In this document: positions 13,634 to 50,844 of the stretch, one piece after another
Position numbering within the stretch: position 1 is the stretch's first letter
Layout: every line of letters starts with the position of its first letter
Origin: an uncultured bacterium
GTDB taxonomy: Bacteria; Patescibacteriota; Andersenbacteria; UBA10190; CAIZMI01
Direction of reading: 5' to 3'
NCBI GenBank assembly: GCA_903934015.1
Contig: CAIZMI010000034.1
Span: forward strand, 20,378 to 84,377
DNA length: 64,000 nucleotides
Made by a program: the position numbers and the translations under genes
The notes under the pieces: generated by a model
Seen by the model: only the letters and a program-made list of their open reading frames with translations
The model's database searches: none
Told to the model about the DNA's origin: nothing

Positions 13634-13639
13634 TTTTGC

Positions 13640-24889: not shown

Positions 24890-25622
24890 TCTGTAATAAT
24901 TTACTTTGCGGTATTGCAATTAATGTTTGTATGCCAGAGTCCCATTGGTAAGGTTTCTGCCCACTGCCCATTACACACAATCCATATTCTTCAAAACAAA
25001 GACTGATTGGCGATAAATCCCATATTTTCGCAGTTTTATTAAAGTAGGCATTATTTTCTTGCGACACGATAGATAACGCATTATCAACACAAGACCAACG
25101 ATCACTTACTATGAAGTCTTGTTTTTTTAGAATTGGGGCAAACCCATTATCGTCAGCAATAATACTCAAATCCTGCGTCTTGTCTAAATTAATATGCTTT
25201 CTTTGTCCATTAACAAAAACTCCTTTATTGCGTTGTGCGGTAACAAGCATATCTTTAAAGGGATTATAAAGAACAGATAACTGAACTTTATCTTCCGTGA
25301 TACGCGCGATCATAACCCCACAATCTTTTACACCATGCGTAAAATTATGCGTGCCATCAAGCGGATCAATAATCCAAATATTTTTTGCGTCAATCGTTTT
25401 TAACAATCCCTTTTCTTCCGCTATAATTCCATCTTCCGGGAAATTTATTTGAATTTGTTCAATAATATACGCTTCTGAACGTAAATCCGCGTCAGTAGCA
25501 AAATCGTTTGCTCCCGATCCTTTAATGTGTCGTTTAAGCTTTTGCCCAAAATAATTCTTGATTATTTCTCCAGCCTTACTCGCCATCTCAACGGCCAGTT
25601 CCAATGGTGTAATCATAATCAC
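24864..25622 (-). CDS. inositol monophosphatase family protein
   Basis: WIIDPLDGTHNF metal-binding motif. Confidence 0.8.
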   Translation of the reverse strand: MIMITPLELAVEMASKAGEIIKNYFGQKLKRHIKGSGANDFATDADLRSEAYIIEQIQINFPEDGIIAEEKGLLKTIDAKNIWIIDPLDGTHNFTHGVKDCGVMIARITEDKVQLSVLYNPFKDMLVTAQRNKGVFVNGQRKHINLDKTQDLSIIADDNGFAPILKKQDFIVSDRWSCVDNALSIVSQENNAYFNKTAKIWDLSPISLCFEEYGLCVMGSGQKPYQWDSGIQTLIAIPQSKLLQIREILERK

Positions 25623-28450: not shown

Positions 28451-28873
28451 TTAATATCGAAAATTCACCTTTACATCCGCGCTTTTGCCTTGAAAAAAGT
28501 CTTGGCAAAACTTCGCTGCCTTATACGGAGGATATGCTTTACAGCTGAAAATATCTAAATAGACCGCATTTGTTTGATTTGCAAAATGACCGGAGATTAG
28601 CGATGTTTCAATCAGTTGAGTCATCGAAAAACCGGACACGCGCGGGTCTTCACCAAAATCTACCACTGTGGTTTCACCAAAGGTTTTCATATCAATAAGC
28701 ACGCAAAGTTCGCGGACAAAATCTTTTATTTTTTGCGCATCTCTGATTATTTCCGGATTACACTCCTTTAAATCCACGCAAGTAGACATCCCCCACGGGT
28801 TCTCGTTACCATACTTTTCAACAATTTCTTGGTCTTTCGATACAAAATCACCACTCAATGAATTATCATTCAT
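28451..28873 (-). CDS. speH: S-adenosylmethionine decarboxylase proenzyme, SpeH/class 1 type
   Basis: Self-cleavage and pyruvoyl region GFSMTQLIETSLISGHF…YLDIFSCKAY. Confidence 0.75.
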   Translation of the reverse strand: MNDNSLSGDFVSKDQEIVEKYGNENPWGMSTCVDLKECNPEIIRDAQKIKDFVRELCVLIDMKTFGETTVVDFGEDPRVSGFSMTQLIETSLISGHFANQTNAVYLDIFSCKAYPPYKAAKFCQDFFQGKSADVKVNFRY

Positions 28874-29454: not shown

Positions 29455-30234
29455 ATGAAATTTTTCCTTTCAACCGGAATATTTTCAAAAATCTGCTCCC
29501 CCGACATTGCCGAAAAGATTGCATTAGATGCCGGTTATGACGGAATCGAACTTATGCTACCACCTCGTTATGTTTACCATCAAGAAGATACCGGCGATCT
29601 CTCTGCACTGCGCGCAACGACAATCATTCACTCAGCAAACGATTACTATGACGAATCACGATTTCACGCGGCATTAAGCGATGCGGTGAAAACAGCGCAT
29701 ACCATTAATTCCAAGCTGATCATCATTCATCCACCTTCCGCATATTTTAGTGGCCGTGAAAATATCCGCAGAGGCATCGCGCTCATTCAAAAATTACAAC
29801 AAGATACGGAACTGATAATTGCCTATGAAGTGCTCGGCATTTCATCACCAAAGACGCCAGACTCCTACCTCCACGGTTTAAAACAGCAAGGATACAAAAC
29901 ACCGCAAAAATGGGTAGATGATGTAAAACACTATAATTTAGCCGCAGTGCTCGACACCTCCCATGTGGCAAGTTGGGGAATCAATCCAACAACATTCCTT
30001 TCTCTTCTCGGTTCAAATGTCCGCCATATCCACCTTAGCGACTTCGACCCGAATACCAAAACAACCCATCTCCTGCCCGGTACGGGAAACATCAACTTAC
30101 CTGATTTCTTCCATACACTGCAGAAAGATTACCAGGACATTACTGTGACAATCGAAGTCAATCCAGTGAAGACGATGGCTGAAGGAGTAGAAATTGCAGA
30201 TAAATGTTTTACCTTCCTAAAAAAATATCAATAA
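29455..30234 (+). CDS. sugar phosphate isomerase/epimerase (xylose-isomerase-like TIM barrel)
   Basis: AP-endonuclease-2/TIM-barrel pattern with conserved Glu/His/Asp positions (…IIHPP…AYEVLG…HLSDFD…IEVN). Confidence 0.65.
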   Translation: MKFFLSTGIFSKICSPDIAEKIALDAGYDGIELMLPPRYVYHQEDTGDLSALRATTIIHSANDYYDESRFHAALSDAVKTAHTINSKLIIIHPPSAYFSGRENIRRGIALIQKLQQDTELIIAYEVLGISSPKTPDSYLHGLKQQGYKTPQKWVDDVKHYNLAAVLDTSHVASWGINPTTFLSLLGSNVRHIHLSDFDPNTKTTHLLPGTGNINLPDFFHTLQKDYQDITVTIEVNPVKTMAEGVEIADKCFTFLKKYQ

Positions 30235-31007: not shown

Positions 31008-31324
31008 GATTAATGAGTTTAACAACTTATACCACAACAATACTCACTGTTTCACCACTTCAATGAAATAATTAAAAAGCTCTATTACTCTCAGGAAAAG
31101 AGCTGTCGTTTCCCGCTTATTGCTTGCGTGATGAGGAAGCATAGTAAGAAAGTGACAACTCTCCAACAACAAGGAATTAATAAAGACACGATCAGTAACG
31201 CTAGTCGGAAACACTTCTAAGGGGTTTTCCCAAAAATTAAACTTCGTATCAATATTAAATATGAAATTTTTTTGAATATTTTCTCCAGACATATCAAATT
31301 TGTCCGCGTGAATCAAACACCCCG

Positions 31325-31870
31325 CGGCAAGCCGCGGGGTATGACAGGAGGCATGGCCGTCATGTGAGGAGACGTAACTGCGCTGGGTTACCGCTCGTCT
31401 TTCCCTGGTTTTGGACGTATTGCTCAACCACCTTCCAATTACCCCGCTCGCCCACTGTGGCGAGATAAAAACCGTCACTCCAAAACTCTCCACCCCACAG
31501 ATCCTTCTTGAGCGCGGGAAATCGACGGAACAACTGTATTGCCGTGACGCTTTTGAAAATTCGGACCGCTTGTGAACCACTCATCTTTGGTGGAAAAGAG
31601 CAGAGCAGATGGATGTGATCACCGTCTGTACCTATTTTTTCAAACGTAATTTCGAAGCGTTCCGTGATTTCCCGCGCGATCTGCACAATGGCGAGCGGGA
31701 TTTCGTCAGTCAGTAAAGCTTTTCTGTATTTAACAGGAAAGACGAGGTGATAGTGAGAGGTATAGACATGATGATAACCATGAAGGACGGCCATGCGTTA
31801 ATTCTATACTGGAAACCAATGGTTTCCAGACCTTCCTTTACAAGGACCCCGCGGCAAGCCGCGGGGTAAG
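31325..31870 (-). mobile_element. IS200/IS605-family element bounded by identical subterminal hairpins
   Basis: ccccgcggcaagccgcgggg occurs at 31330-31349 and 31847-31866, flanking tnpA. Confidence 0.8.
31360..31794 (-). CDS. tnpA: IS200/IS605 family transposase TnpA (Y1 HUH)
   Basis: HUH motif GDHIHLL plus YHLVFPVKYRKALL and WGGEFWSDGFYLATVG. Confidence 0.85.
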   Translation of the reverse strand: MAVLHGYHHVYTSHYHLVFPVKYRKALLTDEIPLAIVQIAREITERFEITFEKIGTDGDHIHLLCSFPPKMSGSQAVRIFKSVTAIQLFRRFPALKKDLWGGEFWSDGFYLATVGERGNWKVVEQYVQNQGKTSGNPAQLRLLT

Positions 31871-32685
31871 ATAAAAATATAATCATATAATCCGTGAAAC
31901 GAATGAAGTAGCTTCCCAAGATCGTATTCAATCGGCATCCTGGTTGCGCCATTTGGATCCACAAACTTCACGGAATCACCATTAATCAATATGTTTCCGA
32001 AATGTAAATCACCATGGATAAATCCGACACTTTGCGGTACAAATTTTTCTAAATATCTTTCTTGAGAAATTTTTTCCATTATCAGCGGTACGCCCAAATA
32101 TTCACAGCCATTAATAACAACATTCTTTAGGGCTAGTAATTCTCTTAACCATAAGATGCATTTTGCCTCATTCATTCTAAGACTTATCTTTCGCCAATAT
32201 AATCGTTCAATTTCGACTGCACCCAGAGTGAAAATATTTTTCGAATTATACAGTTCAAACAATATTTCCACGCTCTTTGCCACGTATTTTTTCAAATCAT
32301 CAAAACCAATATTATTATCACAAAAGACGCTTCCGAGAGAACGAAACTGTTCCAAAAATTCCAGCTCATAAATCGCCAAATACTGATCATAAAAGCCACC
32401 ATGAAAACATGGGGCAACATTATTATTAGCACCCAAAGACCGGTACCATTCGATTTCTTTAGAGGTTGTATCCGGCAGATATCCACTCTCCGCTTTCATA
32501 ACCCTCAACCCAAAGCGACTTTTGAAAACAACCAAAAGCGCCTTTGTATTATCTTCTTCGATAAATTTTACGACTCTTTCGCCAAGTATCCTATTAAAAC
32601 TCAGTTTAAGTTCGTCTTTGGTTAAGTGTGTTTTGGTTGATTTCAGCGATTCAATGGCCTCACAGTAAACATCAGACGTAGCCAT
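31804..32685 (-). CDS. aminoglycoside-phosphotransferase-like / choline-kinase-like protein kinase-fold enzyme; 3' end disrupted by the IS200 element
   Basis: Brenner motif HGDLHFGNIL and a downstream VDPNG. The last ~18 codons (…GLPRGPCKGRSGNHWFPV) are translated from the IS200 terminal hairpin. Confidence 0.65.
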   Translation of the reverse strand: MATSDVYCEAIESLKSTKTHLTKDELKLSFNRILGERVVKFIEEDNTKALLVVFKSRFGLRVMKAESGYLPDTTSKEIEWYRSLGANNNVAPCFHGGFYDQYLAIYELEFLEQFRSLGSVFCDNNIGFDDLKKYVAKSVEILFELYNSKNIFTLGAVEIERLYWRKISLRMNEAKCILWLRELLALKNVVINGCEYLGVPLIMEKISQERYLEKFVPQSVGFIHGDLHFGNILINGDSVKFVDPNGATRMPIEYDLGKLLHSFHGLYDYIFILPRGLPRGPCKGRSGNHWFPV

Positions 32686-33217
32686 AAAATTTGGCCGTAT
32701 GCCAAGCAATAAGCAGTGTCGGGTCCACAATGGCACCCCTCTTTAGTAAATCATCCAATTTTTCTTTTCTGACGATCCTTTCCTGTACCCTTTCCACGGA
32801 AGATGTTTGCCTCCCACTGACTTTTTCCATCTCATTCGAGAAAAAAATATGCAACATTCCATCAGATCTTCCCGGACGCATATAATAACTAACCAGTTTC
32901 TTAATTTTTTTGGGCTTATACCCCGTTTCTTCTATACATTCCCTGATTGCGGTTGCTTTGGGGCTTTCACCGGCATTTACCTTTCCTCCAGGAAGGTCAT
33001 AAATCCAAGAATCAATAGGAAATCTGTATTGATACGTCAAAAGCACGTCTCCCTCTTTCGGAACCAATAAAACCGCAGCTGCATCTTTTGAGCGATTTAC
33101 GGCATATTTTATTGTCTCCCCGTCGGGTAATTTCACAGTTTCCTCATAAAGGGGAAAGGGTTCGCCGTATATTGGCTGACTATGCACAATTTTCCATTTC
33201 TTGTTGATTGACTTCAT
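32672..33217 (-). CDS. Nudix hydrolase (ADP-ribose-pyrophosphatase-like)
   Basis: Nudix box GGKVNAGESPKATAIRECIEETG. Confidence 0.8.
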   Translation of the reverse strand: MKSINKKWKIVHSQPIYGEPFPLYEETVKLPDGETIKYAVNRSKDAAAVLLVPKEGDVLLTYQYRFPIDSWIYDLPGGKVNAGESPKATAIRECIEETGYKPKKIKKLVSYYMRPGRSDGMLHIFFSNEMEKVSGRQTSSVERVQERIVRKEKLDDLLKRGAIVDPTLLIAWHTAKFYGYV

Positions 33218-33311
33218 TTCAATGCTTGTTAATATACAATAATATTAAAGTTCGCTATCCGTAAACTATAGAACATTACACCAACTCCTTACAAGCATTA
33301 CTCAAAAGACC

Positions 33312-34421
33312 ATGCAAGAAAGTCTATCATTCAACTATAAGAAGAATTTCAATAAAGAGATTAAAATATACTTTTCGCAAGATAGTGCGAAAATTGTTGC
33401 TGACATATGTGGGTATTTAGGTACTGACCGAATTTTTATTGTTGCCGACAACGGCTTTAAAAACAACCACTCACACCGCCTTAAACAAAATCTATCAATT
33501 AAATTCCCCACTAAAGTACTAAATATAACCGCAAAAGAAATTAAGAAAAAATTATCCACCCTTCACAATTTGTCAGAAAAGATTATTGCCAATGGAGCGA
33601 CAAATAAATCAGTAATAATTTCGTTGGGCGGAGGACTGGTTGGAAATATCGCCGGCATGTTGGCGGGATTATTGTTTAGGGGCGTCCCGTTAATTCACAT
33701 ACCAACAACAGTTCTTTCGCAGGCGGATAGCGCAACGGACGTAAAACAGTCCGTCAATTGTGAAAACATAAAAAACGGGATGGGAATATATTATCCGCCT
33801 GTTGCCGTAATTATTGATGTGAATTTATTAAAAACACTCCCTGAACGCGAAGTCAGATCGGGTTTGGCGGAAATAATCAAGCATGCCCTGGCACAAGATG
33901 AAGATCTTCTTAGGTATTTATACAGAAAAGTCCCCACTCAAAAAATAAATGCGCCCACGCTTGAACGAATAATTGCCAGAACAATATCGCTCAAAATCGA
34001 ACACTGGAAAAACACGCCGGATATGTGGAGCGAGGAAGCAGTCAAAAAACCGGAAAGATTAACTCATCTTGGACACACGACGGGGAAAATTTTAGAGATT
34101 CTTCAACAAGATAAAATAACTCACGGCGAGGCAATCAGCCACGGAATGATAATCGAAGCCATCGCATCAAAAAAACTTGGAATTGGAAACGAGCAAATAA
34201 TTACCGAGATGAAAAAAGTATTTGGACGCTTTCAATTGCTTTATCCCCTCAAGAAAAACATTAATAGCTCTTCAGTTATTTATGGTCTTTATGGAAATAA
34301 AAACAAACAAAAAAATCCGATATTTGCTTTATTAAAAAATTTGGGTGTTCCAAAAACCGTTTCAACTTCAATAAATCCAGATATATTAAAAGAAGCACTG
34401 CTTGAATATGGAATCAAATAA
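33312..34421 (+). CDS. 3-dehydroquinate-synthase-like sugar phosphate cyclase (DHQS/DOIS/EEVS/DDGS superfamily)
   Basis: Glycine-rich NAD-binding motif SLGGGLVGNIAGMLAG; 369 aa; metal-binding His/Glu pattern in the C-terminal half. Confidence 0.7.
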   Translation: MQESLSFNYKKNFNKEIKIYFSQDSAKIVADICGYLGTDRIFIVADNGFKNNHSHRLKQNLSIKFPTKVLNITAKEIKKKLSTLHNLSEKIIANGATNKSVIISLGGGLVGNIAGMLAGLLFRGVPLIHIPTTVLSQADSATDVKQSVNCENIKNGMGIYYPPVAVIIDVNLLKTLPEREVRSGLAEIIKHALAQDEDLLRYLYRKVPTQKINAPTLERIIARTISLKIEHWKNTPDMWSEEAVKKPERLTHLGHTTGKILEILQQDKITHGEAISHGMIIEAIASKKLGIGNEQIITEMKKVFGRFQLLYPLKKNINSSSVIYGLYGNKNKQKNPIFALLKNLGVPKTVSTSINPDILKEALLEYGIK

Positions 34422-35190
34422 GAAAATAGTCATCTTATCAATACGCCGAAAACATTTTCCCAATACCACTCATATTGTTGAAAAACTGAAACGAGCAGGC
34501 GTGAATGTAATACACCCAAAAACGATAAGAGATTTTGAAAAAGCATGCAAAGTGATCAGTTCAAACGATATTATAATCACACTTTATTTTTCGAAAAATA
34601 ATAGCTTTAGAAAACAACTGGTAGCACTAGAAAAGAAGGGGTGCATGTTAATGGATCATCCCAACAAAATGCGGCTTACGGAAAACAGAAAGAAAACTAT
34701 GGAGTTATTGTCAAAGTCAAATATCAAGATTCCAAATTTCTATTTTGGACACCCTGACTGTATTCCAAATCATTTAGGAAATAAGCTGGTAATCAAACAT
34801 CCATTTGGACTTGCTATTGGTTTTATCGATACTAAGAGAGCTAGAGAAATTAACCAAAAGAACATTTACGTCGAAGAAATCCTTTTAAATCCCAAAAAAA
34901 CCGTCCGTTGTATCACTTACGTGTTTGGTATGGTGTTCACAAGAATCAAAAAGGACAAATTTGATATTGGTTTTGCCGATATACCGGGAACAGAGCCAAA
35001 AACGAGCACTTCGAAAAAAGATAGAATACTGGCGCAAAAGGTGCACAAACTTACCGGTATGGAATTATTCAACGTGGATTTAATCGACGAAGTTGTTATC
35101 GAGATAAATTGTTGTCCAAATTTTTTCTTGTACGACTCCATCGTCAAACATTTTGTTAAAAGAATTATAGAACTTTCGCAGAAACAATGA
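34402..35190 (+). CDS. ATP-grasp fold ligase
   Basis: LVIKHPFGLAIG, IYVEEIL, and LFNVDLIDEVVIEINCCPNF. The gene overlaps the cyclase stop codon. Confidence 0.6.
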   Translation: MNMESNKKIVILSIRRKHFPNTTHIVEKLKRAGVNVIHPKTIRDFEKACKVISSNDIIITLYFSKNNSFRKQLVALEKKGCMLMDHPNKMRLTENRKKTMELLSKSNIKIPNFYFGHPDCIPNHLGNKLVIKHPFGLAIGFIDTKRAREINQKNIYVEEILLNPKKTVRCITYVFGMVFTRIKKDKFDIGFADIPGTEPKTSTSKKDRILAQKVHKLTGMELFNVDLIDEVVIEINCCPNFFLYDSIVKHFVKRIIELSQKQ

Positions 35191-35993
35191 CGAACAATTA
35201 TGTAAATAACAAAAATGAAGTAAGGATGGTTTCAAAAGTAAGAAATAATTATTTCAGAAAATTTGTCGATTTTATTATCAAACAATCCTGCCTTAAAATG
35301 GATTCTGTCGTTGTTGACACCCCTTGTGGTACGGGAGAAATGACACAGTTATTGTTGAAAAAGGGGGTCGGAAAGAAATATTATCTTCTCGATATAAACC
35401 CATTTATGACAAAGGAGGCGCGAAATCGTTTACCGAAAAAATCAACCATTATTACCGGCGATGCCAACAATATTGCAAACTTTATTCCTGAAAGAGTCGA
35501 TACTATCTTTTGCTTAAACGGATTTCATATTTATCTATCCCGAAAGCGACAGTTTCTAAAGGGGTGTTACAAAATTCTAAGGCCCGGAGGAACTCTGATT
35601 TTTGACGTGTCAACAAAGGGATTAAACAATGAACAATCAAAAAGGTTTTTAGTGAAAGAAAACGCTGAAATGCGCATCCTATCCAGAAACAAATTTATTA
35701 AATATTGCGCGCTCAAATTGGCTAACCATAATACTTTGAAAAATTACCAAAACCTTCTCAGAGAAGCAGGCTTTTCAATTAAGACAGTAAAAATGTTTGA
35801 CACATGGAAAAGTGTCGATGAATTGGTGGATGAAACCACAAAAATACCTGGACGCCTACGCTCTCGACTATTGAACACCACAGATAAACAACGTGTGACA
35901 ATCTACAAGGAAGCCAACGAGGTTGCAAAGCAAGAAACCGGAATAAAACGCATCGAACACAACAGAATATTTTTTGTCGCAAAAAAACCATAG
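35187..35993 (+). CDS. class I SAM-dependent methyltransferase
   Basis: Motif I VVDTPCGTGEMTQLL. The start overlaps the ATP-grasp stop codon (ATGA). Confidence 0.8.
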   Translation: MTNNYVNNKNEVRMVSKVRNNYFRKFVDFIIKQSCLKMDSVVVDTPCGTGEMTQLLLKKGVGKKYYLLDINPFMTKEARNRLPKKSTIITGDANNIANFIPERVDTIFCLNGFHIYLSRKRQFLKGCYKILRPGGTLIFDVSTKGLNNEQSKRFLVKENAEMRILSRNKFIKYCALKLANHNTLKNYQNLLREAGFSIKTVKMFDTWKSVDELVDETTKIPGRLRSRLLNTTDKQRVTIYKEANEVAKQETGIKRIEHNRIFFVAKKP

Positions 35994-36032
35994 CACGGTG
36001 ATCAACACACTTTGTCTAAAAATTATGTCTTG

Positions 36033-36110
36033 CCCCGCCCGCGCGAAAACCTTTTACCTTTTTGGATCACTTGGTCACTTCCGACTTTTTGGTCGATTGT
36101 TTTCGCGACT
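36033..36110 (+). repeat. degenerate duplicate of the tyrS 3' end (copy 2 of 4; longest)
   Basis: The reverse complement translates to EVAKTIDQKVGSDQVIQKGKRFSRGRGKT. The TyrS C-terminus is VVKSIEQKVKTGNKIQKGKRFFVRVG. Confidence 0.65.
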
Positions 36111-36270
36111 TCCCCACTCATTTTTTATCCAATTTGCCGGCATAAAAAACCGGAATCAGGGACTCCGGCGAAACCATGCCACCATTCTCCGTGACGTTCC
36201 AGAAGATATCCACAAAGACTACAGTGACGCCCAGTAGCTTTTTCTAAATCAAAATGTTATAAATATAAAC

Positions 36271-36669
36271 ATGAATAAGAAATTAGTGATTTGTGCAAGT
36301 GCTTCATTTGAAAATGAAATTGTGGATTGGAAAAACAAGTTAGAAAACAATGGTTATGAGGTAATAAAATACCCCACGAAAATTAATGATGATCTCGTTA
36401 ATAAATACAAAAAGGAGTTTTCTGAACACTACGAAGCTATTACACGGACAGATGTTCTCCTTGCACTTAATTTAGATAAAAAAGGAATACCTGGTTATAT
36501 CGGAGCTGGTGTCTTTGCGGAAATTGCTTTTGGCATCGGTCTGAATCGAGCACTAAAAAAGAATATAGAGATCTATTATCTAAACTCATTCCCCAAAGAC
36601 GCCTTTCCCTATTCGGATGAATTAAAACTTTGGCAGGAGTTGGGCTGGATAAAACAGTTCCGCCCATAA
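36271..36669 (+). CDS. nucleoside 2-deoxyribosyltransferase-like protein; tentative
   Basis: GAGVFAEIAFGIGLNRAL resembles the NDT-family D.GT.FE.G.A motif. Confidence 0.4.
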   Translation: MNKKLVICASASFENEIVDWKNKLENNGYEVIKYPTKINDDLVNKYKKEFSEHYEAITRTDVLLALNLDKKGIPGYIGAGVFAEIAFGIGLNRALKKNIEIYYLNSFPKDAFPYSDELKLWQELGWIKQFRP

Positions 36670-36715
36670 ATAAAAACCGTACACGTTGTACGGCTGATAT
36701 TTTTTTGCGTCGATC

Positions 36716-38005
36716 TCACTGCCAATTTTCGACAAGGAATTGTTCTAGCACCCCGTAAGACCCTTCAAGTTGCGCAAAGTCTTCATCATCACCCCACCAG
36801 TGATAGTTGTTATGGTGGATATGGTATCTTTCCCAGCTAGACCCATTGTCGGGAATGTTGAGATTGAAAGCCTTCGCATTCCTGAAAACATACGAACCCG
36901 GTAATGGCACAAAGCGGAACAGGGATACCCTGTCAACCATCGGCGCAATATCTTTCAGGAGAGAAATTGTCTCATTTGTACTTTCCAGATTTTCACCGGG
37001 AAAGCCATGCACTAGAAAGATCTTGACCATCAAACCTACTGATATGGCAAGATTAACAGCTCTTCTGATTTGGTTAGTCGTCACATTCTTACCCATTGCC
37101 TGCAACATTCGTTCACTGCCGGATTCCACCCCAAATTTCAACTCAATACATCCCGCATCGTGCAAACACTCAAGCAGTTCATAATCAACCGTATCAACTC
37201 TGGAAAGCGCAGACCATTTCAGATTGAGACTTTCTACGGCTCTGCAGATTTCCCTCACCATCTTTTTGTTGATAATGAAGTTATCGTCAACTACCGCGAA
37301 GCCATCAATACCGTATCTGCGTTTGAGATGCTCGAGCTCCATTCTAACATTCTCGCCAGATCGACACTGAACCCTTTTTTGATAAACTGCGCAGAAATGA
37401 CAAGAAAATGGGCATCCTCGACTCATCATAATATGTGCCATTTTCATATCAGTATTTGCCAAACGATCATGCATAATTAAGTCCGACTCGTCGAGCAAAT
37501 GCCTCGCCGGAAAAGGAAGCCAATCTATCCCCTTTTCAAGAGAACGGCTTGCGGTCGTCTTTGGTGACTGATCGACCAAGTAGCCTACCCCTCTAATACT
37601 CGAAAAATCCCCAGTAGAATGTGCTCGTACGATTTCTACTAAGGTTTTTTCTCCGCTTCCTATCGCAACAACATCAGCCCGAAAATCCACAAGCGTTTCT
37701 TCTGGATAGAAACTGGCATGAACTCCACCAACCGCAATTGTAGTATTGGATGAATACATACCCCCAAACCTCGCCCTTTGGACAATCCCGTAAGTCGCCG
37801 AGGATGGGGTGCTAAACCCGACAACGTCATAACCCTGAAAATCACAACTATTTTCCCCCTCGTTAATCTTGAAGATTTTCACTTCAATATTATTTTCTTC
37901 AAGGAAAGCCGCGAGGTACAAAACACCAAACGGAGGAAATTCTTTTCTCTTTTCCTTAAAACGAGCAAGTTCGTAAACCTCTGGATAAACGAGAGCAACT
38001 CGCAT
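36716..38005 (-). CDS. B12-binding radical SAM enzyme (class B)
   Basis: N-terminal cobalamin-binding Rossmann-like domain. CxxxCxxC cluster motif SRGCPFSCHFCAV. Confidence 0.8.
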   Translation of the reverse strand: MRVALVYPEVYELARFKEKRKEFPPFGVLYLAAFLEENNIEVKIFKINEGENSCDFQGYDVVGFSTPSSATYGIVQRARFGGMYSSNTTIAVGGVHASFYPEETLVDFRADVVAIGSGEKTLVEIVRAHSTGDFSSIRGVGYLVDQSPKTTASRSLEKGIDWLPFPARHLLDESDLIMHDRLANTDMKMAHIMMSRGCPFSCHFCAVYQKRVQCRSGENVRMELEHLKRRYGIDGFAVVDDNFIINKKMVREICRAVESLNLKWSALSRVDTVDYELLECLHDAGCIELKFGVESGSERMLQAMGKNVTTNQIRRAVNLAISVGLMVKIFLVHGFPGENLESTNETISLLKDIAPMVDRVSLFRFVPLPGSYVFRNAKAFNLNIPDNGSSWERYHIHHNNYHWWGDDEDFAQLEGSYGVLEQFLVENWQ

Positions 38006-38174
38006 GTTAGACCCTTTCTACTTATTCAATTATTGAAAATGCAATCAGAGCCACAGAACTTGGCAACTTACAATATTATATGCGGATGATCAAGGCTTTC
38101 TACTTACAAGGTGTCAACGCTAAATGACAGAATATCAATCAGTTACCACCTCTCAGTTAATTGTTGGCACCTGA

Positions 38175-38591
38175 TCAGATTTTTTTCTTTTCGGAAAGCC
38201 ACCCAATCAACATCGTCTTTAAACTTTCCGGAAGTAATTTAACTTTATTCAACGACTTTATTTCAATAAACTCGAAACTTATGTGATTTTCCCTGCTCAC
38301 AATTTTTTCTGTACCAATTTCGACAACAAACACTAAATTTAATTCGTGATGTTTCGTTCCATTCTGTTTAAATATGTTTTCGACTACACCAACAGATTCT
38401 CCTAATTTCGCAACAGTTCCTAATTCTTCTCTAATTTCCCTTGCAAGCGCTTTTTGGGCCGACTCCCCAAATTCTATATGACCACCCGGTAAAAAACACC
38501 AGTCGGCCTCTTTGGCCTTGCACACTAACAATTTATCCCCCGAAACAATCACCGCGCGTACAATATTCTCGATAAAAAGATGGCTATCCAT
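38175..38591 (-). CDS. Nudix hydrolase
   Basis: Nudix box GGHIEFGESAQKALAREIREELG. Confidence 0.8.
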   Translation of the reverse strand: MDSHLFIENIVRAVIVSGDKLLVCKAKEADWCFLPGGHIEFGESAQKALAREIREELGTVAKLGESVGVVENIFKQNGTKHHELNLVFVVEIGTEKIVSRENHISFEFIEIKSLNKVKLLPESLKTMLIGWLSEKKKI

Positions 38592-38702
38592 ATTTTATAC
38601 CCTAGCAGATATTAACATTCTTTTCACTCGAGGATTTTTACAAACTTGAGATATCACCCTCAAACTTGTAATGTACTAATACAAGCATTTTCATTAGATT
38701 AA

Positions 38703-39263
38703 ATGGCCACGAAATATACAAAAGACGAAAATGAAATAATTGAAAAAGCAATTCTTTTTCTTGTTACCGAATATGAAAAAACTGGATCCAATGAAAAACC
38801 GGTAATATTTCATAGTCTGCGCGTCGCTTGCAAGCTTGTGGAAGTTGGCGCATCAGCCACTATTGTTACCGCCGCCATTCTGCATGATTTAATTGAAGAC
38901 ACCAATGTTGATTTTGAGCGAATAAAAAATATTTTTGGCAGTGATGTCGCAAAGCTCGTCGACGCCGTTTCTTTTAAACCAAATATCGTTGACAAAGAAG
39001 AACGATATAAAGAAATGTTCGAAAGAACAAAAAATGCCGGAACAGATGCACTTAAAATCAAATGTGCAGATATTTTAGATAACAGTAGCTATTACTCATT
39101 CGGCCTTGACCAAGAACACGAAAAACGCTTGATAAACAAGCTAAAATATTTTTTGTTTATTGCAGAACCACAATTAGACGATTTTCCCCTCTTTCAATTA
39201 CTGAATGAACGTTATCAAACATTACTCACCCAATTTAATAACGACAATAAAAAGCCAATATAA
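38703..39263 (+). CDS. HD-domain (p)ppGpp-hydrolase-like small alarmone hydrolase (RelA/SpoT HD domain only)
   Basis: FHSLRVACKLVE…AAILHDLIEDT matches the Rel/Spo hydrolase HD motif. Confidence 0.65.
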   Translation: MATKYTKDENEIIEKAILFLVTEYEKTGSNEKPVIFHSLRVACKLVEVGASATIVTAAILHDLIEDTNVDFERIKNIFGSDVAKLVDAVSFKPNIVDKEERYKEMFERTKNAGTDALKIKCADILDNSSYYSFGLDQEHEKRLINKLKYFLFIAEPQLDDFPLFQLLNERYQTLLTQFNNDNKKPI

Positions 39264-39299
39264 TGTTCACACGACTTATTTTTTTAACCACACATTAAT

Positions 39300-39622
39300 A
39301 TGAAATTTAAAGATTTAATCTCTAAAGCACTAGTGATCAGAGCTACGTATGGCGAGTATGAAGAAAAAACCTATGGCAAAAGGTGGACTAAAGAAAATAC
39401 CGCCGAGGACTTTGTTGGAGACGTGGGTGATTTAATGAATTTGGTGCTGGTCAAACAAGGAGTACGGCAAATAGAGGAGATTGATAAATAATCGCGCACG
39501 AATTATCTGATTGTTTATGGTCAATTATAGTTTTGGCTCAGTTCTATAATTTTGATTTGGAGTCCGCTTTTTTAACAAACATAGATGAATTAAAGTCTTT
39601 TATCGAAAATAAGATTAAATAA
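39300..39622 (+). pseudogene. MazG-like NTP pyrophosphohydrolase with a single-A frameshift
   Basis: N-terminal part ends …VGDLMNLVLVKQGVRQIEEIDK at the stop at 39489-39491. The C-terminal part continues in the -1 frame (IAHELSDCLWSIIVLAQFYNFDLESAF…). One extra A in the gataaataatc run would fuse the two parts. Confidence 0.55.
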
Positions 39623-39637
39623 AAATAATTTTGTCAG

Positions 39638-40027
39638 TCACACAGAATGAGATTTCCGTAGCCCAATTGCGAGACTGCTGATACAAAGCGCGTGATCAAA
39701 CTTTCCACTGACAATCATTTTCCACAACTTGTCCTCATCAATGAAACTGCAATTTATTACTTCCGCAGGATCTTCTTTTGGTTGAGAAATCTTAACCGGG
39801 TTTTTGACGAGAAAAACAAACATCTTATTGCTCTGTCTGGCTGGATTTGGTGACACCGTACCAACAAAAGAAAAATCTCCCGTATAACCAGTCTCCTCTA
39901 ATAATTCCCTTTTCGCGGCTTCAAGCGGATTTTTGTCTTTTTCATCCACGGCACCGCATGGCAATTCATAGCTCACTTTGCCAATTCCGTGACGATACAT
40001 AATAAGGAGAGACTTTTGTTCCGTCAC
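39638..40027 (-). CDS. Nudix hydrolase
   Basis: Nudix box GAVDEKDKNPLEAAKRELLEETG. Confidence 0.8.
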   Translation of the reverse strand: MTEQKSLLIMYRHGIGKVSYELPCGAVDEKDKNPLEAAKRELLEETGYTGDFSFVGTVSPNPARQSNKMFVFLVKNPVKISQPKEDPAEVINCSFIDEDKLWKMIVSGKFDHALCISSLAIGLRKSHSV

Positions 40028-40374
40028 TGGTCACACAATCATCCGCACGCACCTTAATCCATCGATCAGATAATACATAACGAGACCGCAGCACTTTCCA
40101 AGGCTTAATAATCTTTTTAAAATTTTTGACTAATTTCATGAACTTTCCAGGTTAGTTATTATCATTCCCTTTATGAATCATCCACTGATTTAACCCTAAC
40201 CACTTTCTTATTTTATTTCAATAACCTCGCCCTATCGGTGGTAGATACGAGCATACAGATTGAATATTTTCATTCGATGTTATCACAAAACTTAACTTAT
40301 TAAGTATAAAATTATTTGTGATACTTTTAAAAGTGACTATTTACCAAAAACGGTAATGAACCTAAAGTATCAAT

Positions 40375-40995
40375 ATGCAAAGTCATAACCCTAATCCCGA
40401 CGATAAATTAATTTGGACGGAAATATCAAGAAAACAATTATTCGAGAAATTTTCTCGTGGCATTGATGATGTTGTCTTCAAATTTCCTGATAATCAAATA
40501 CACCATTATTTTATTAAAAATGAGCCGGACACGGTCTGCACACTGGCTTTTGATCAAAATAATCAGGTTATTTTGGCACAACAATTTCGACCCGGTCCAC
40601 AAAAGGTTCTTCTCACGCTCCCTGGAGGAGGCCTAGAGCCTGGTCATGATCCCATTTCAAGTGCCACAAGAGAACTAATGGAAGAGGTTGGTTACGAAAG
40701 CCATCTCAATCTCACTGCAACCTTTTTTGATGACGGGTACTCTACAAGCAGACGCTATTGTTTTTTAGCTGTAAATTGTACGAAAACAAATATCCAAAAA
40801 CTAGATCCGACAGAATTTATCAACACTGTTCAACTGCCCATTGATATCTTTATGGATGAACTCCGAAACGGAAGTATTACTGATCCGGAAGCAGCCTATG
40901 CTGCAATAGATTTTATTAATAAAAATGCGGATTCTCGGAAAGAATACAGCGACTTAAGTGAGTTGTTCAAAAAAACAATATATACGGCTTATTAA
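40375..40995 (+). CDS. Nudix hydrolase
   Basis: Nudix box PGGGLEPGHDPISSATRELMEEVG. Confidence 0.8.
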   Translation: MQSHNPNPDDKLIWTEISRKQLFEKFSRGIDDVVFKFPDNQIHHYFIKNEPDTVCTLAFDQNNQVILAQQFRPGPQKVLLTLPGGGLEPGHDPISSATRELMEEVGYESHLNLTATFFDDGYSTSRRYCFLAVNCTKTNIQKLDPTEFINTVQLPIDIFMDELRNGSITDPEAAYAAIDFINKNADSRKEYSDLSELFKKTIYTAY

Positions 40996-41383
40996 AAAAC
41001 CCTCCATGTTGAGAGGGCTTGTAATAATACAATTATCAGTTTTGAATCAATGGGGTGACACAAAAAGAAAAACAAAAAAGCGTGGTAAGCCTCATCAAGG
41101 GGTTGATAATAGAAGAAATTTTCCTTAAACAAGAGTAGTTTGTCTACCGTTATATCTAGTCCAATTTCCTCTTTGACCTCGCGCTTTAAAGCGTCCTCCA
41201 TTTTTTCTCCGACTTCCATCCCGCCCCGGGAAACCAAAGTTTACCATTACTTTTGTTTCGCATCGTTACAACCTTACCTTGCTCCAAAATAATACCGTAA
41301 ACGCTGGGTCGGAAATAAAACTTCTCGAGAGGAACATCCACCATTTCGTCAAAATTATTTTTGCAAGAAATAAATTTGTCCAT
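40992..41383 (-). pseudogene. Nudix hydrolase split by a frameshift in a G-run inside the Nudix box
   Basis: N-terminal fragment ends …KLWFPGAGWKSEKKWRTL. The C-terminal fragment begins VSRGGMEVGEKMEDALKREVKEEIG. One extra G in ggggcggg restores PGGGMEVGEK…. Confidence 0.55.
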
Positions 41384-41436
41384 TAGTCAACTATTTACAG
41401 AATGGTACCAAACGTGCGTTATTGCAACTGACACCA

Positions 41437-41739
41437 TTAGTTTCCCAAATGTCTCTGCAATAAAAATTTTGTCGTTAACTTTAATTTTCTATCAATGCGT
41501 AAATCATCCACGATTACTGCCAAATTTTGCCAATCTTCTTCTGTGAAATAACGCCACAACAGACGGTTGATGAAACGACTGTAATATTGACGTTCTTCCG
41601 CCGTGTTCCGCCATGGCTGTTTGCACAACATTCCGTCTCAGTTGGTCAGTGCCTCAATATCCGAGGGCGAATAATTCATCATAAATATAGTTTATCATTA
41701 ACGCCCGTGATATTGTTAATCTTGGCTATGCACAATTAA
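41437..41739 (-). pseudogene. paralog of the 80-aa small protein at 43719-43961, with TGG to TGA nonsense change
   Basis: Reads MMNYSPSDIEALTN-stop-DGMLCKQPWRNTAEERQYYSRFINRLLWRY…, about 90% identical to the intact copy. The stop codon sits where the paralog has Trp. Confidence 0.5.
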
Positions 41740-41819
41740 TATTTGCATGAATTTGACAACATAGGTCTCGTCCGTAACAGCCAAATTCGCGTTAATTTTA
41801 CTGTTTTGAATTATGCTTT

Positions 41820-41853
41820 TACAAAAAACCGCTTGCCTTTTGGGATTATTTGG
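41820..41853 (+). repeat. degenerate duplicate of the tyrS 3' end (copy 3 of 4)
   Basis: The reverse complement encodes GQIIPKGKRFFVKA followed by a stop. Confidence 0.5.
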
Positions 41854-41886
41854 CCAAATTTTTACACAAAAAAAGATCGGCTATCA

Positions 41887-42444
41887 CTAACCGATCTCAC
41901 AACCTCTTGATCTAAGAAAACGCATTAACGCCTCACTCGCATGAAAAAAGGTCCCGTTATTGGCGATCTCGATGTCCGCCAGTGAAACAACTTCGGCCAT
42001 TCCCGCTTCCGTCTTAAATCGGTCAATGAGACGCATTTCTGCAATCGCCACATCCAATGAACAACTCAAGCGTCGTTGCATATTAGATTGCCGACGATCA
42101 ACTGAAGCATGAATCAAAACAGTTAGGCAATTTGCACCAGGAAATGCTTCCACTATCCCCTGTTTCAACCAGGGATCGTAGCAACCATCAATCACAACAC
42201 TTACGCCTTTCTCCAGCATTTGCTGAAGAATAACGAGTGTTTTTTTGCGTGCACATTGCACTAAATGATTAGTACCGGCTTTTTTCCACCAGTCTCTAAC
42301 ATGCTTTTCCCCAGCAAACACCGCCAGTTCGTGCAACAACGCTCGTTCCTTGATTATCTGCCAACGAGGATCGGCTTCAACCAGCGCCTTCGCGATAGTT
42401 GATTTTCCCGTCCCGCTCGGTCCAGTGAGCAAAAGAATGAACAT
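41887..42444 (-). CDS. P-loop NTPase / small-molecule kinase-like protein
   Basis: Walker A LLLTGPSGTGKSTIA at the N-terminus. GC-richer than neighbours. Confidence 0.55.
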   Translation of the reverse strand: MFILLLTGPSGTGKSTIAKALVEADPRWQIIKERALLHELAVFAGEKHVRDWWKKAGTNHLVQCARKKTLVILQQMLEKGVSVVIDGCYDPWLKQGIVEAFPGANCLTVLIHASVDRRQSNMQRRLSCSLDVAIAEMRLIDRFKTEAGMAEVVSLADIEIANNGTFFHASEALMRFLRSRGCEIG

Positions 42445-42889
42445 TTCTCTTTTCCCTCCAAAAATCCGCGACTATTTGTTTTGTGCCGACAATGGTTTTT
42501 AATTTTTTCAGCTCCTTATTACTTACCCACTTGTAGACTTTGTGTTCATCGCTAAGTTGCAAAATTCCATCGCAACCAACCAAAAAAACAATACGCACAA
42601 TCAAGTAGCTGATGCCGTTTGTTTTAGTCAAAATCTGCGTTACTGTCAATGGCTCACTTTTAACGACCACCAACCCCGTCTCCTCTTTGACCTCCCTCTC
42701 CATTGCCTCTCGCGCCACCTCCCGCACCTCCAATTTGCCTTCGGGAAGTTGCCACAAACCCCTGAAAGATTTGTGATTTATACTGCGTTTCAACATCAAA
42801 ATACGACTGTTTTTATCGACAATAATCGCTGAAGCAACTAATTTAATTTGCGTTAAATCAGGTATGTTCATTTTGTAATTTTTGCGCAT
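42377..42889 (-). CDS. Nudix hydrolase
   Basis: Nudix box EGKLEVREVAREAMEREVKEETG. The C-terminal 68 nt overlap the downstream kinase ORF, so the true 3' end is uncertain. Confidence 0.65.
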   Translation of the reverse strand: MRKNYKMNIPDLTQIKLVASAIIVDKNSRILMLKRSINHKSFRGLWQLPEGKLEVREVAREAMEREVKEETGLVVVKSEPLTVTQILTKTNGISYLIVRIVFLVGCDGILQLSDEHKVYKWVSNKELKKLKTIVGTKQIVADFWREKRNVHSFAHWTERDGKINYREGAG

Positions 42890-43697
42890 AAGTTCGCATA
42901 CGTGCGACAACCTCTCTCACCTTTAACCAATTTTCATCCAAGTTTTTTTCTGCCAAATCCAAATGCAAAAATAATTGGCGAAATGATTCTTTGTAAGGTG
43001 CCCCTTCTAACAAAGGAAATGAACTGTAACCAACCTCGCGGTCTTCTTCAACCTCGCGAATATCATCGATCAGTTGCATGGCAACGCCATACCCATTAGC
43101 AAAACCCAAGGCTTTTTCTCTGACATCTTCACGCTCGGCCAAAGCGCACCCAAATAAAGCACCAATGGAATTAAACACACAAATATGTTCTATCCCCGGG
43201 CGATAATCACTAAAGTTTGTCGCTTTGTTTTCCCAAAGCAATGAAATATTCTTCCGCTGATAATAATGGTTCAAATTAATCTGCTGTAACAATATATCCA
43301 ACGCCTTCTTCTTATCCATTTCAATCAACATCCTTGTGCCTTCAATCGCCATAATATTCCCCGCAAAAACCAGGCACGACACTAAATCCCTTTCTTTGGG
43401 CATTTCGTCAACAATGTCATCGTGTGTCGAAATCGGTAGCATTGTCATCCCCAGCGCGATCAATGCCTTATCATCAACAGATTTTCCGGTTAAATCAAAA
43501 TGAAAAGCTTCACAAATGACCATCGGCGCCAAAGCGATTACTTTTTTCGGAAGAACAATAAACAATTTTTCTAAACCGGCATCAGGATATGATTTTACAA
43601 CTTCCGCAACTACCGGAATTAGCAACTCACGATAGCGCGTAACGTCGCCGTACAAATCTCCAACCAAACTTGATGTACCACCAACTTTTGATGACAT
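42858..43697 (-). CDS. polyprenyl synthetase family protein (short-chain trans-isoprenyl diphosphate synthase-like)
   Basis: Two Asp-rich motifs, HDDIVDE and QLIDDIREVEED. Confidence 0.7.
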   Translation of the reverse strand: MSSKVGGTSSLVGDLYGDVTRYRELLIPVVAEVVKSYPDAGLEKLFIVLPKKVIALAPMVICEAFHFDLTGKSVDDKALIALGMTMLPISTHDDIVDEMPKERDLVSCLVFAGNIMAIEGTRMLIEMDKKKALDILLQQINLNHYYQRKNISLLWENKATNFSDYRPGIEHICVFNSIGALFGCALAEREDVREKALGFANGYGVAMQLIDDIREVEEDREVGYSSFPLLEGAPYKESFRQLFLHLDLAEKNLDENWLKVREVVARMRTYAQKLQNEHT

Positions 43698-43718: not shown

Positions 43719-43961
43719 TTATTTCAAATGTCTTCGCAATAAAAATTTTGTGGTGAGTTTTAGTTTTCTGTCTATGCGCAAATCATCAACGATTTTTGCC
43801 AAATTTTGCCAATCTTCTTCTGTCAAATAACGCCACAACAGACGGTTGATGAAGCGACTGTAATATTGACGTTCTTCCGCTGTATTCCGCCATGGCTGTT
43901 TGCACAACATTCCGTCCCAGTTGGTTAACGCCTCAAGATCCGAAGATGAATAGTTCATCAT
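43719..43961 (-). CDS. small conserved hypothetical protein (80 aa) translationally coupled to the upstream NTase gene
   Basis: ATGA overlap with the 43958-44629 gene. A pseudogenised paralog lies at 41437-41739. Confidence 0.5.
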   Translation of the reverse strand: MMNYSSSDLEALTNWDGMLCKQPWRNTAEERQYYSRFINRLLWRYLTEEDWQNLAKIVDDLRIDRKLKLTTKFLLRRHLK

Positions 43962-44629
43962 AAGGTCGTACTGTTAATTAATTTATCTATTTGTGCTGTA
44001 ACTAATTCAATATTTGTTATGCCGTCACGTAAAAACATCTCCGGCCTTAATTGAAACTGCTCCCTTTTCGCAACAAGCTCGCTTAATAATTTTTCTTCAC
44101 CAATCGTTCCCAAACGAAATTTCTTTTCTGCGATTTCAGCAAGATTACGAAGAGACCAATTTTGTTTTTTTGTAAGAAAGGCAATATCGATATAATCCTT
44201 AATTTCATCTCGCGAACAAAGCGCCGACGCTTTGCCGGCGGCCGCATCTTCCAAACTCGCCGTTGCCAATGTTCCAAACACTACAAAGCTCCCAATTTGG
44301 GAAATATTATCGTGTACCGCGTCAATCACCATTCCACTGGCCTTATCCATCCAACCGCGATCAGTATCGACAATTTGATCAACACCAAAAAGCTCTTGCG
44401 CCAAACGGTGCAACCGGATCATCCGTTGGTTAAATACAAGCGCATCAACTTCCGGATAAGTAAAAAAATCAAGATCATTTGATTGTCGCGGAACAATACC
44501 CAACGCTTTTAATAATGTGCCACCGGTCAAATAAAAAGTACGCGCCAGTTCAACATCGTCAGCCACGTTTTTAATCACCTCCAATTGCGGTTCAGTTAAA
44601 TCTTGCAACTCATCAATTGTTCTAATCAT
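43958..44629 (-). CDS. nucleotidyltransferase of the AbiEii/DUF1814-like toxin family
   Basis: YLTGGTLLKALGIVPRQSNDLDFF resembles the AbiEii GGTAL…R.S.D.DF motif. Confidence 0.55.
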   Translation of the reverse strand: MIRTIDELQDLTEPQLEVIKNVADDVELARTFYLTGGTLLKALGIVPRQSNDLDFFTYPEVDALVFNQRMIRLHRLAQELFGVDQIVDTDRGWMDKASGMVIDAVHDNISQIGSFVVFGTLATASLEDAAAGKASALCSRDEIKDYIDIAFLTKKQNWSLRNLAEIAEKKFRLGTIGEEKLLSELVAKREQFQLRPEMFLRDGITNIELVTAQIDKLINSTTL

Positions 44630-46628: not shown

Positions 46629-46686
46629 AAAGTCAGTGTACAACCAATTGCGCCAATGTTCCAAATTCCATATCCTGAAGAGTACT

Positions 46687-48519: not shown

Positions 48520-48532
48520 AGAAATAGATTAA

Positions 48533-49615: not shown

Positions 49616-49877
49616 AAATATTGTGTTTGGAGAGTAAACTAGTGCGACTATAATGTCAATAGCAAATCACTTGACAGTGTCACAACGAGGTGGTACTTTG
49701 CGCGGTTGGCTTTGGACCCCAACGAGACCAGCGTTTTAGCCACTTTTTGTGCTTAAAACGGTGCTCTTTCACCCCGGCGACGACCCGAAAACTCGTCGCC
49801 CATTTTTTCCAGGCATCTGACCGACGTGGTCGGATGGGCTGGACGAAAATGCACTTTTGCAAGGAGAAGAAAAAGCG

Positions 49878-50723: not shown

Positions 50724-50737
50724 TGATGAAGGGAAAA

Positions 50738-50780: not shown

Positions 50781-50787
50781 TTAATAT

Positions 50788-50821: not shown

Positions 50822-50844
50822 CGGACCTTAATGCGATTGTTTTT

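Follow-up and report, generated by a model that had tools for sequence, protein, structure and literature searches.

What does a sugar-phosphate cyclase make in an ultra-small bacterium of the Candidate Phyla Radiation (CPR)? The question is raised by a stretch of 64,000 nt from an uncultured member of the Andersenbacteria (Patescibacteriota; assembly GCA_903934015.1, contig CAIZMI010000034.1, positions 20,378 to 84,377), called the window below, in which a gene for a cyclase with the fold of 3-dehydroquinate synthase (DHQS) is followed by genes for an ATP-grasp enzyme and a methyltransferase. Sugar-phosphate cyclases start the routes to aminoglycosides, validamycin, acarbose, sunscreens and aromatic amino acids, and the known subfamilies each have a diagnostic active-site fingerprint that is tied to the product. 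The window cyclase and its relatives in Patescibacteria carry another fingerprint. We lean, by a little, towards the operon belonging to a pathway that leads to a cyclitol or carbasugar by way of nucleotide-linked intermediates, and among the readings offered by an initial annotation of this DNA a cyclitol-type pathway is the best supported. What is new here is the cyclase subfamily, its accessory set (NUDIX hydrolase, APH-fold kinase and orphan ATP-grasp enzyme) and the unexpected host group. In the literature library that could be searched, no paper connects Patescibacteria or Saccharibacteria with cyclitol synthesis.

Operon layout

Three overlapping Open Reading Frames (ORFs) run in the same direction on the plus strand. 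Their coordinates, and the Pfam matches of the first and the third, agree with the initial annotation, in which they stand for a DHQS-like cyclase, an ATP-grasp ligase and a methyltransferase of class I. The cyclase (33312-34421; 369 aa) contains SLGGGLVGNIAG and matches DHQ_synthase (2e-30) and DHQS_C (9e-20). The ATP-grasp ORF (34402-35190; 262 aa), a member of an orphan family, probably starts at ATG 34408 according to gene callers, and from this start it overlaps the cyclase gene by 14 nt. The class I S-adenosylmethionine (SAM)-dependent methyltransferase (35187-35993; 268 aa; Methyltransf_11/25/12, E ~1e-15) overlaps the ATP-grasp gene by the 4 nt of ATGA, through which it is translationally coupled to that gene. 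The reading of the three as a single operon with translational coupling is supported. A further ORF behind it, orf87 (35974-36237), was taken as spurious, being called by no gene caller and matching no family.

Divergently from the cyclase lies the gene of a NUDIX hydrolase of the ADP-ribose/ADP-sugar pyrophosphatase type (32672-33217, minus strand; Pfam NUDIX). The 94 bp between the two genes (33218-33311) presumably hold a bidirectional promoter region; promoter-like matches at 33208-33235 (plus) and 33294-33265 (minus) showed no enrichment over shuffled sequences. The next gene is an APH-fold kinase ORF (31804-32736, minus strand; Pfam APH 3e-9). The identical cyclase protein was found on 16 contigs from several public samples.

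Active-site signature and phylogeny of the cyclase

The cyclase has the features that define the sugar phosphate cyclase superfamily, namely the DHQ_synthase and DHQS_C domains, three metal ligands and the Asp/Lys/Asn/Lys set, and all catalytic and metal residues of the superfamily are kept (R123, D139, K145, N155, E187, K190, K228, H255 and H271). Its best match in PDB is BtrC (2D2X/2GRU), a DOIS (synthase of 2-deoxy-scyllo-inosose), at 160 bits (E 5.6e-46; about 33% identity); genuine DHQS score at most 116 bits, ValA (an EEVS, the synthase of 2-epi-5-epi-valiolone) 83 bits and desmethyl-4-deoxygadusol synthase (DDGS) 72 bits. A database search gave about 42 proteins at 39-55% identity to the cyclase, followed by a sharp fall to 34-37%. 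The named members of this clade come from Daviesbacteria (CP066688.1 among complete genomes), Microgenomates and Saccharibacteria, all of them Patescibacteria.

The active-site alignment combined partial BtrC, ValA, DDGS and plant DHQS sequences, rebuilt from HMMER alignments, with DHQS and DOIS sequences from databases. Around the second metal His, the motif is R..LN.GH..GH in DHQS, GL..E.GH..GH in DOIS, (R/E)RLVDFGH..SP in EEVS and DRVIAYGH..SP in DDGS. The Patescibacteria clade has ERLTHLGHTxGK, which is near-invariant in its approximately 42 members (E248, R249, H252, H255 and K259 in the window protein). In this comparison, which the initial annotation had proposed, the cyclase has the residues of neither DHQS, DOIS nor EEVS/DDGS.

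His252 aligns with DHQS Asn268 and BtrC Glu243, and Lys259 with DHQS His275 and BtrC His250. In DHQS, Arg264, Asn268 and His275 (A. nidulans numbering) are presumably the substrate-binding residues, and from the BtrC literature we take Glu243 to be DOIS-specific. Every aligned DHQS has R..xN.GH..GH, a motif absent from the window cyclase and the clade. Glu at BtrC-243 and His at BtrC-250, both of which the cyclase lacks, are present in BtrC and in three proteins from Streptomyces that carry a DOIS annotation. At the fingerprint sites of EEVS and DDGS (-3 and +4 from the second metal His, and the DHQS Lys250 site) the cyclase has H, K and K; ValA, DDGS and an EEVS-like protein from a Saccharibacteria locus have D/A, P and M, with Asp marking EEVS and Ala marking DDGS. 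Two further motifs cut across the subfamilies. The E-R pair at -7/-6 from the second metal His is common to the clade and the EEVS-like proteins and absent from DOIS, and GGGLxGN is found in the clade and BtrC, where DHQS, ValA and DDGS have GGGxxxD.

In a bootstrapped neighbour-joining (NJ) tree, the clade is monophyletic (99/100) and does not group with AroB, which answers the phylogenetic placement called for by the initial annotation. It pairs with DOIS at 51-69/100 while lying outside it, apart from DHQS and far from ValA and DDGS. Judged from sequence, the cyclase is a new sugar-phosphate cyclase subfamily, outside every characterised subfamily compared (EboD, 2-epi-valiolone synthase (EVS) and aminoDHQS were not among them), because it has its own motif and a separate tree position, with GGGLxGN in common with BtrC and the E-R pair in common with EEVS-like proteins. 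A cyclase with a new fingerprint is testable new enzyme chemistry.

BtrC is the closest known enzyme, with the same fold, the same catalytic and metal residues and a neighbouring position in the tree. The operon could then belong to a 2-deoxystreptamine-type aminocyclitol pathway, in which the cyclase would act as a DOIS and convert glucose 6-phosphate to 2-deoxy-scyllo-inosose. Besides the top structural match, the grouping in the tree and the shared GGGLxGN, it speaks for this reading that APH-fold kinases and glycosyltransferases are common in aminoglycoside clusters, and that one related locus (L010) has a DegT aminotransferase at a distance of 4 kb. However, in essentially all clade members the site of BtrC Glu243 is His and that of His250 is Lys, E-R stands where DOIS has G-L, and the sisterhood with DOIS has a bootstrap of just 51-69%. 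Moreover, neither the window nor most of the relatives have an aminotransferase or a 2-deoxy-scyllo-inosamine (DOIA) dehydrogenase next to the cyclase. We consider this reading unlikely, though it is the best surviving of the rivals to a nucleotide-linked cyclitol pathway.

Conserved neighbours of the cyclase

Loci were found by scanning genome contigs with the clade alignment, and the neighbourhoods were summarized for 15 distinct genomic contexts (L numbers below denote loci). Most of these contigs are short, so the absence of a partner gene is often uninformative. In the subclade of the window (52-55% cyclase identity), the arrangement kinase(-)-NUDIX(-)|cyclase(+)-ATP-grasp(+) is found in every locus (7 of 7). 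This gene order appears to be beyond chance, as it recurs in six other loci at 41-65% protein identity.

Of all conserved partners, the NUDIX is the one most tightly tied to the cyclase. Its orthologs (38-65% identity) adjoin the cyclase in 12 other distinct loci, and the NUDIX of L012 is a distant one (26%). Over the 15 contexts, 13 were counted as having a NUDIX ortholog, L012 included. The window NUDIX matches ADP-ribose pyrophosphatases in PDB at 81 bits and has the Nudix box GX5EX7REUXEEXGU intact at residues 78-99; it reaches no NCBIfam equivalog cut-off. Thirteen of the 15 contexts have an APH-like kinase (about 355 aa) if the split copy of the window and a distant copy in L012 are counted. 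A sugar-1-phosphate-type nucleotidyltransferase occurs in 8 of 15, and an orthologous GT1-like glycosyltransferase in three lineages (L011, L045 and L046). A bona fide UDP-galactopyranose mutase (L045) and a HAD phosphatase (L013) were each seen in 1 of 15 contexts, and in the Daviesbacteria genome a GT4 glycosyltransferase is all that adjoins the cyclase. An aldolase, transaldolase or aldolase-like gene stands at most two genes from the module in 6 of 15 contexts: a transaldolase/fructose-6-phosphate aldolase (TAL/FSA) near the cyclase or module in L010, L013 and L045, a class II ketose-bisphosphate aldolase in L046, a LacD-like class I aldolase in L008 and a GatZ-like protein in L048. The NUDIX, the nucleotidyltransferase, the GT1 and the aldolases were all absent from the initial annotation, as was the splitting of the kinase by an insertion sequence (IS) described below.

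The close tie to a NUDIX of the ADP-ribose/ADP-sugar pyrophosphatase family also fits a salvage or catabolic module. Here the NUDIX would act on scavenged ADP- or NDP-sugar to set free a sugar phosphate, which the cyclase and kinase would turn into a cyclitol osmolyte or carbon store, with the ATP-grasp enzyme and the methyltransferase as lineage-specific add-ons. CPR bacteria depend on scavenging, and NUDIX genes number five in this region, alongside an HD_4 protein and genes resembling nucleotide kinases. On the other side, ADP-sugar hydrolysis yields 1-phosphates (or ribose 5-phosphate from ADP-ribose), which are not substrates of the DHQS type, and the co-occurring nucleotidyltransferase, GT1 and UDP-galactopyranose mutase suggest the building of a glycoconjugate. 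This makes salvage improbable, and somewhat more so than an aminocyclitol route.

The five NUDIX ORFs start at 32672, 38175, 39638, 40375 and 42377 and lie within about 10 kb (32672-42910), an unusual density of nucleotide-diphosphate hydrolases. The canonical Nudix box is found in 3 of the 5, and the HD_4 protein (38703-39263) and an AAA_18/AAA_33 kinase-like gene (41887-42444) are placed among them. The latter gene and an uncharacterised protein of 279 aa (42858-43697) lie 8 kb from the window cyclase, and the pair recurs in L008 (6550-7948; 34% identity for the 279-aa protein and 27% for the kinase-like gene), where 2.8 kb separate it from the cyclase operon. Both genes may belong to the module as well, or the pairing may be plain synteny.

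ATP-grasp enzyme and methyltransferase

In an exhaustive profile search of 1.84 billion proteins, the ATP-grasp family had 25 representatives, and the window protein matches no Pfam ATP-grasp model. Lys132, Glu158 and E234-x-N236 are conserved in the family and, by analogy with RimK-type enzymes, are likely ATP- and Mg-binding residues. The AlphaFold2 (AF2) prediction made from a 21-sequence alignment (pLDDT 92) has the three-domain ATP-grasp fold, which together with the conserved Lys and the E/D-x-N motif agrees with membership of the ATP-grasp superfamily. The closest folds are ArgX (20.1), ITPK1 (19.9), and DcsG and RimK (both 19.4). Identity to ITPK1, PPIP5K2 and RimK/LysX/ArgX is 13-16%, and in contrast to these enzymes the family is tiny and without a Pfam match; the RSNLHRGG stretch of a RimK-like outgroup (P0146) is not conserved in it. 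Since the predicted fold matches both inositol-phosphate kinases and RimK/LysX-type ligases, the two functions are inseparable on this basis, and the enzyme may be a ligase or a cyclitol or sugar kinase.

Distant members of the family, from metagenomes (20-30% identity), do not adjoin cyclases and are found in heptose-type nucleotide-sugar clusters. For example, L051 has the ATP-grasp gene with a nucleotidyltransferase, a GHMP kinase, a HAD protein, SIS_2 and a transaldolase. In L055 and L057 it is accompanied by a B12-binding radical SAM enzyme, a nucleotidyltransferase, a GmhA-like SIS protein, a transaldolase and an HddA-like kinase, and in L059 it lies in a Wzy/GT2 polysaccharide cluster. 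All heptose-pathway matches in these clusters are under the curated cut-offs. The clusters resemble the gene set of the GDP-D-glycero-alpha-D-manno-heptose pathway (GmhA, HddA, GmhB and HddC), and a related type of nucleotidyltransferase is used in the subclade of the window. The window lineage differs in having a cyclase and an APH-fold kinase in place of the isomerase and the GHMP kinase. By their gene content, the distant members would tie the ATP-grasp family to NDP-activated sugars derived from sedoheptulose 7-phosphate.

The gene after the ATP-grasp gene is a methyltransferase in the window and L047, and a nucleotidyltransferase in L006, L008 and L049. The initial annotation had made its reading depend on both the ATP-grasp enzyme and the methyltransferase being conserved neighbours in relatives. 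This holds for the former in all loci of the subclade, whereas the latter is conserved in no relative but the closest (L047; 47% identity). L010, L044 and L046 also have methyltransferases close to the cyclase, which were discarded as counterparts, being orthologous neither to that of the window nor to each other.

As its lead idea, the initial annotation had read the three genes as the core of a mycosporine-like amino acid (MAA) or gadusol pathway, in which a DDGS or EEVS would act on sedoheptulose 7-phosphate, followed by an O-methyltransferase and, for the addition of an amino acid, a MysC-type ATP-grasp enzyme. The presence of these three enzyme classes in one operon (MysA, MysB and MysC in the mycosporine cluster) and the indirect hints of a C7 substrate, possibly sedoheptulose 7-phosphate in both cases, speak for it. 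However, all three enzymes appear to be of other subfamilies. The cyclase scores far below its BtrC match against ValA and DDGS, has H, K and K in place of their D/A, P and M and is placed away from them in the tree. The methyltransferase has no match to Methyltransf_3 (PF01596), which we take to be the family of MysB-type O-methyltransferases. The ATP-grasp enzyme is set apart from MysC indirectly, by the absent Pfam match and the size of its orphan family. Moreover, the conserved partners are the NUDIX, the kinase, the nucleotidyltransferase and GT1, which to our knowledge are not part of MAA clusters of the Ava_3855-3858 type. The mycosporine reading is therefore dropped as very improbable.

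The least probable reading is a housekeeping DHQS (AroB) of the shikimate pathway, as implied by the public annotation (3-dehydroquinate synthetase at JGI) and by the aroB model TIGR01357 being the top NCBIfam match by score, because the 206.5 bits reached are below the equivalog cut-off of 305, ERLTHLGH..GK replaces the DHQS motif, the clade is separate from DHQS in the tree, no aro gene lies within the window (its two PF00275, EPSP-synthase-family, genes are MurA, with 446 and 473 bits on the murA model, and not AroA), the DAHP_synth_1 gene of L046 is a KDO8P synthase, and CPR genomes usually lack aromatic amino-acid synthesis, in line with the initial view that this cyclase is no housekeeping AroB. 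In metabolic reconstructions of CPR bacteria, the name "3-dehydroquinate synthase" would wrongly imply shikimate capacity.

A candidate nucleotide-linked cyclitol pathway

The substrate, product, step order and tailoring roles given here are proposals built on the observed gene content, family and fold assignments, signature, tree position and neighbourhood conservation, and we trust the choice of any one substrate or product far less than a nucleotide-linked cyclitol pathway as such. The operon would encode the opening steps of such a pathway, one that has to date been seen in Patescibacteria only. Following the family mechanism, the NAD+- and metal-dependent cyclase would transiently oxidize a central sugar phosphate, eliminate phosphate and reduce the intermediate, and ring opening with intramolecular aldol closure would then give a carbocycle (keto-cyclitol). 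The first choice of substrate would be sedoheptulose 7-phosphate, and the second glucose-, mannose- or another hexose-6-phosphate. We infer the ranking of sedoheptulose 7-phosphate over glucose 6-phosphate from the heptose-type clusters of the ATP-grasp family, the aldolase neighbours and the E-R pair.

The ATP-grasp enzyme might phosphorylate the cyclitol, as ITPK1 and PPIP5K do with their substrates, or activate it for ligation, and the class I methyltransferase might methylate the product. In the relatives, the APH-fold kinase and the nucleotidyltransferase together would give an NDP-linked form of the cyclitol, or of a partner sugar, for transfer by the GT1 glycosyltransferase. The NUDIX may hydrolyse an NDP-linked intermediate, either controlling its pool or releasing a specific phosphate ester; a NUDIX GDP-mannose mannosyl hydrolase in colanic-acid clusters offers an analogy.

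In pathway logic, the closest known systems are the NDP-valienol routes of validamycin (ValA/ValC/ValB) and acarbose (AcbC/AcbM/AcbU/AcbJ/AcbR). They share with the present loci a cyclase, a kinase, a nucleotidyltransferase and a (pseudo)glycosyltransferase, and in one relative the HAD phosphatase. However, the cyclase here is not an EEVS, the NUDIX is an integral partner, the kinase has an APH fold where ValC and AcbM are of the ROK/glucokinase type, and the transferase is a GT1 where valienol pathways use GT20- or GT5-like pseudoglycosyltransferases.

A separate observation concerns the Saccharibacteria metagenome-assembled genome JARIHL010000085.1 (L012, 8680-20570), in which a true ValA-like EEVS (384 bits) lies beside the cyclase of the CPR clade. 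Further genes there encode a ROK kinase, several Zn-dependent dehydrogenases, a thiamine pyrophosphate (TPP) enzyme, an HMGL-like lyase, an APH kinase, a NUDIX and a nucleotidyltransferase. The locus thus has the look of a complete cluster for a C7-cyclitol, here in a CPR bacterium.

Several results weigh against a nucleotide-linked pathway of this kind, or against sedoheptulose 7-phosphate as its starting point. The window has no GT1, no transaldolase and no nucleotidyltransferase of the module type, and its only NTP_transferase is an RmlA-like one (47728-48519) about 13 kb from the cyclase. The methyltransferase follows the ATP-grasp gene in 2 of the 7 subclade loci. Sequence and phylogeny place the cyclase nearest to DOIS, a glucose-6-phosphate enzyme, and the argument for sedoheptulose 7-phosphate stands on the neighbourhood and two residues. 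Judged by the high identity of NUDIX and TAL, the TAL adjacency comes mostly from one lineage (L010, L013 and L045), and the aldolases could be housekeeping genes that are chance neighbours in small genomes. The tree is distance-based, with partial reference sequences and a sampling that leaves out EboD, EVS and aminoDHQS.

Moreover, the kinase is disrupted in the window. Intact relatives (355-360 aa) align to the window in two pieces by tblastn: an N-terminal fragment of about 285 aa (31819-32736, minus strand; residues ~1-285 of the relatives), which is a pseudogene or part of a split gene, and a C-terminal fragment of about 88 aa (31050-31313, minus strand; residues ~270-358, E 1e-9 to 1e-15). 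The latter is displaced by an insertion of the IS200/IS605 family (31345-31845, minus strand), whose tnpA (31360-31794) encodes a Y1 (HUH) transposase (PF01797, Y1_Tnp). A 26-bp direct repeat flanks the insertion (31319-31344 and 31846-31871), and a hairpin is found at 31809-31829. The kinase is split in all public contigs listed for the source organism. Because it is broken by this insertion, the pathway may here be truncated, decaying or reliant on the ATP-grasp enzyme.

A conserved subfamily with a new fingerprint, known only from ultra-small CPR bacteria that shed most biosynthesis, implies an important product, perhaps one for the cell envelope or for host interaction. It is possible, if doubtful, that Patescibacteria own a hitherto unrecognised class of sugar-phosphate cyclases (the His/Lys pair) that makes a new carbocyclic C7 (or C6) sugar. 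After nucleotide activation, this sugar would become part of a glycoconjugate at the surface or of a glycoside that is secreted, possibly glycosidase-inhibitor-like, serving the episymbiotic lifestyle, and the orphan ATP-grasp enzyme would perform a new tailoring reaction shared with heptose pathways.

Neighbouring genes and other features of the window

A B12-binding radical SAM gene (36716-38005, minus strand; B12-binding PF02310 and Radical_SAM PF04055) lies downstream of the operon, convergent with orf132 (36271-36669, plus strand; 132 aa), which has no Pfam, NCBIfam or PDB match. The translation of the radical SAM gene contains CPFSCHFC (CxxxCxxC) and misses every named subfamily cut-off. 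Its family is large, with more than 120 clusters at >50% identity that include Patescibacteria and Actinomycetes and reach Streptomyces. The initial annotation had named the enzyme among the neighbours, with a link to C-methylation in aminoglycoside pathways. However, in another Patescibacteria contig (L062/L063; 9001-10785 in L062), a 71%-identical ortholog is convergent with a 68%-identical copy of orf132 beside an unrelated APH gene, rpmE and prfA, and the cyclase, ATP-grasp and methyltransferase genes are all missing there. Because the pair recurs without the operon, and because a bidirectional terminator-like hairpin (36675-36695) separates the two convergent genes in the window, the radical SAM gene and orf132 are judged from sequence to be a separate conserved unit outside the cyclase operon, and the enzyme was rejected as a core part of the pathway. 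Other B12-binding radical SAM enzymes are encoded directly downstream of the distant ATP-grasp homologues, on the opposite strand, in L055, L057/L058 and L059; they have 25-27% identity to the window enzyme and different lengths.

The other neighbours listed in the initial annotation are also present, in addition to the radical SAM enzyme and the APH-fold kinase: an AP_endonuc_2 TIM barrel (29455-30234), an inositol monophosphatase (IMPase)-family gene (24864-25622), an AdoMet_dc-like gene (28451-28873; a weak match of 30 bits) and a GT9-like gene (24002-24889; a faint match). They do not stand as cluster parts, since none of them is found near the cyclase in any relative. The same holds for an LPG_synthase_C gene, which was likewise tried as a module member and has homologues in no related locus.

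Downstream of tyrS (44693-45889, minus strand) are a polyprenyl synthetase gene (46609-47724) and a nucleotide-sugar cluster (47728-51852) with the RmlA-like nucleotidyltransferase, a pfkB kinase and a GDP-mannose-4,6-dehydratase-family gene. The pfkB kinase resembles domain I of HldE (heptose-7-phosphate kinase) at 219 bits, under the cut-off. The two murA genes are paralogous, about 1.1 kb apart (52613-53923 and 55056-56504) and both over the TIGR01072 cut-off. Mobile and defence elements lie at 9884-13963, 18484-19386 and 43958-44629 and comprise an EcoRI-like adenine methylase, a GmrSD/HNH nuclease, an IS3-type integrase and an AbiEii toxin, the gene of which directly adjoins tyrS. To the same set belongs an ORF with a LAGLIDADG domain, which sits between tRNA-Ser and tRNA-Arg.

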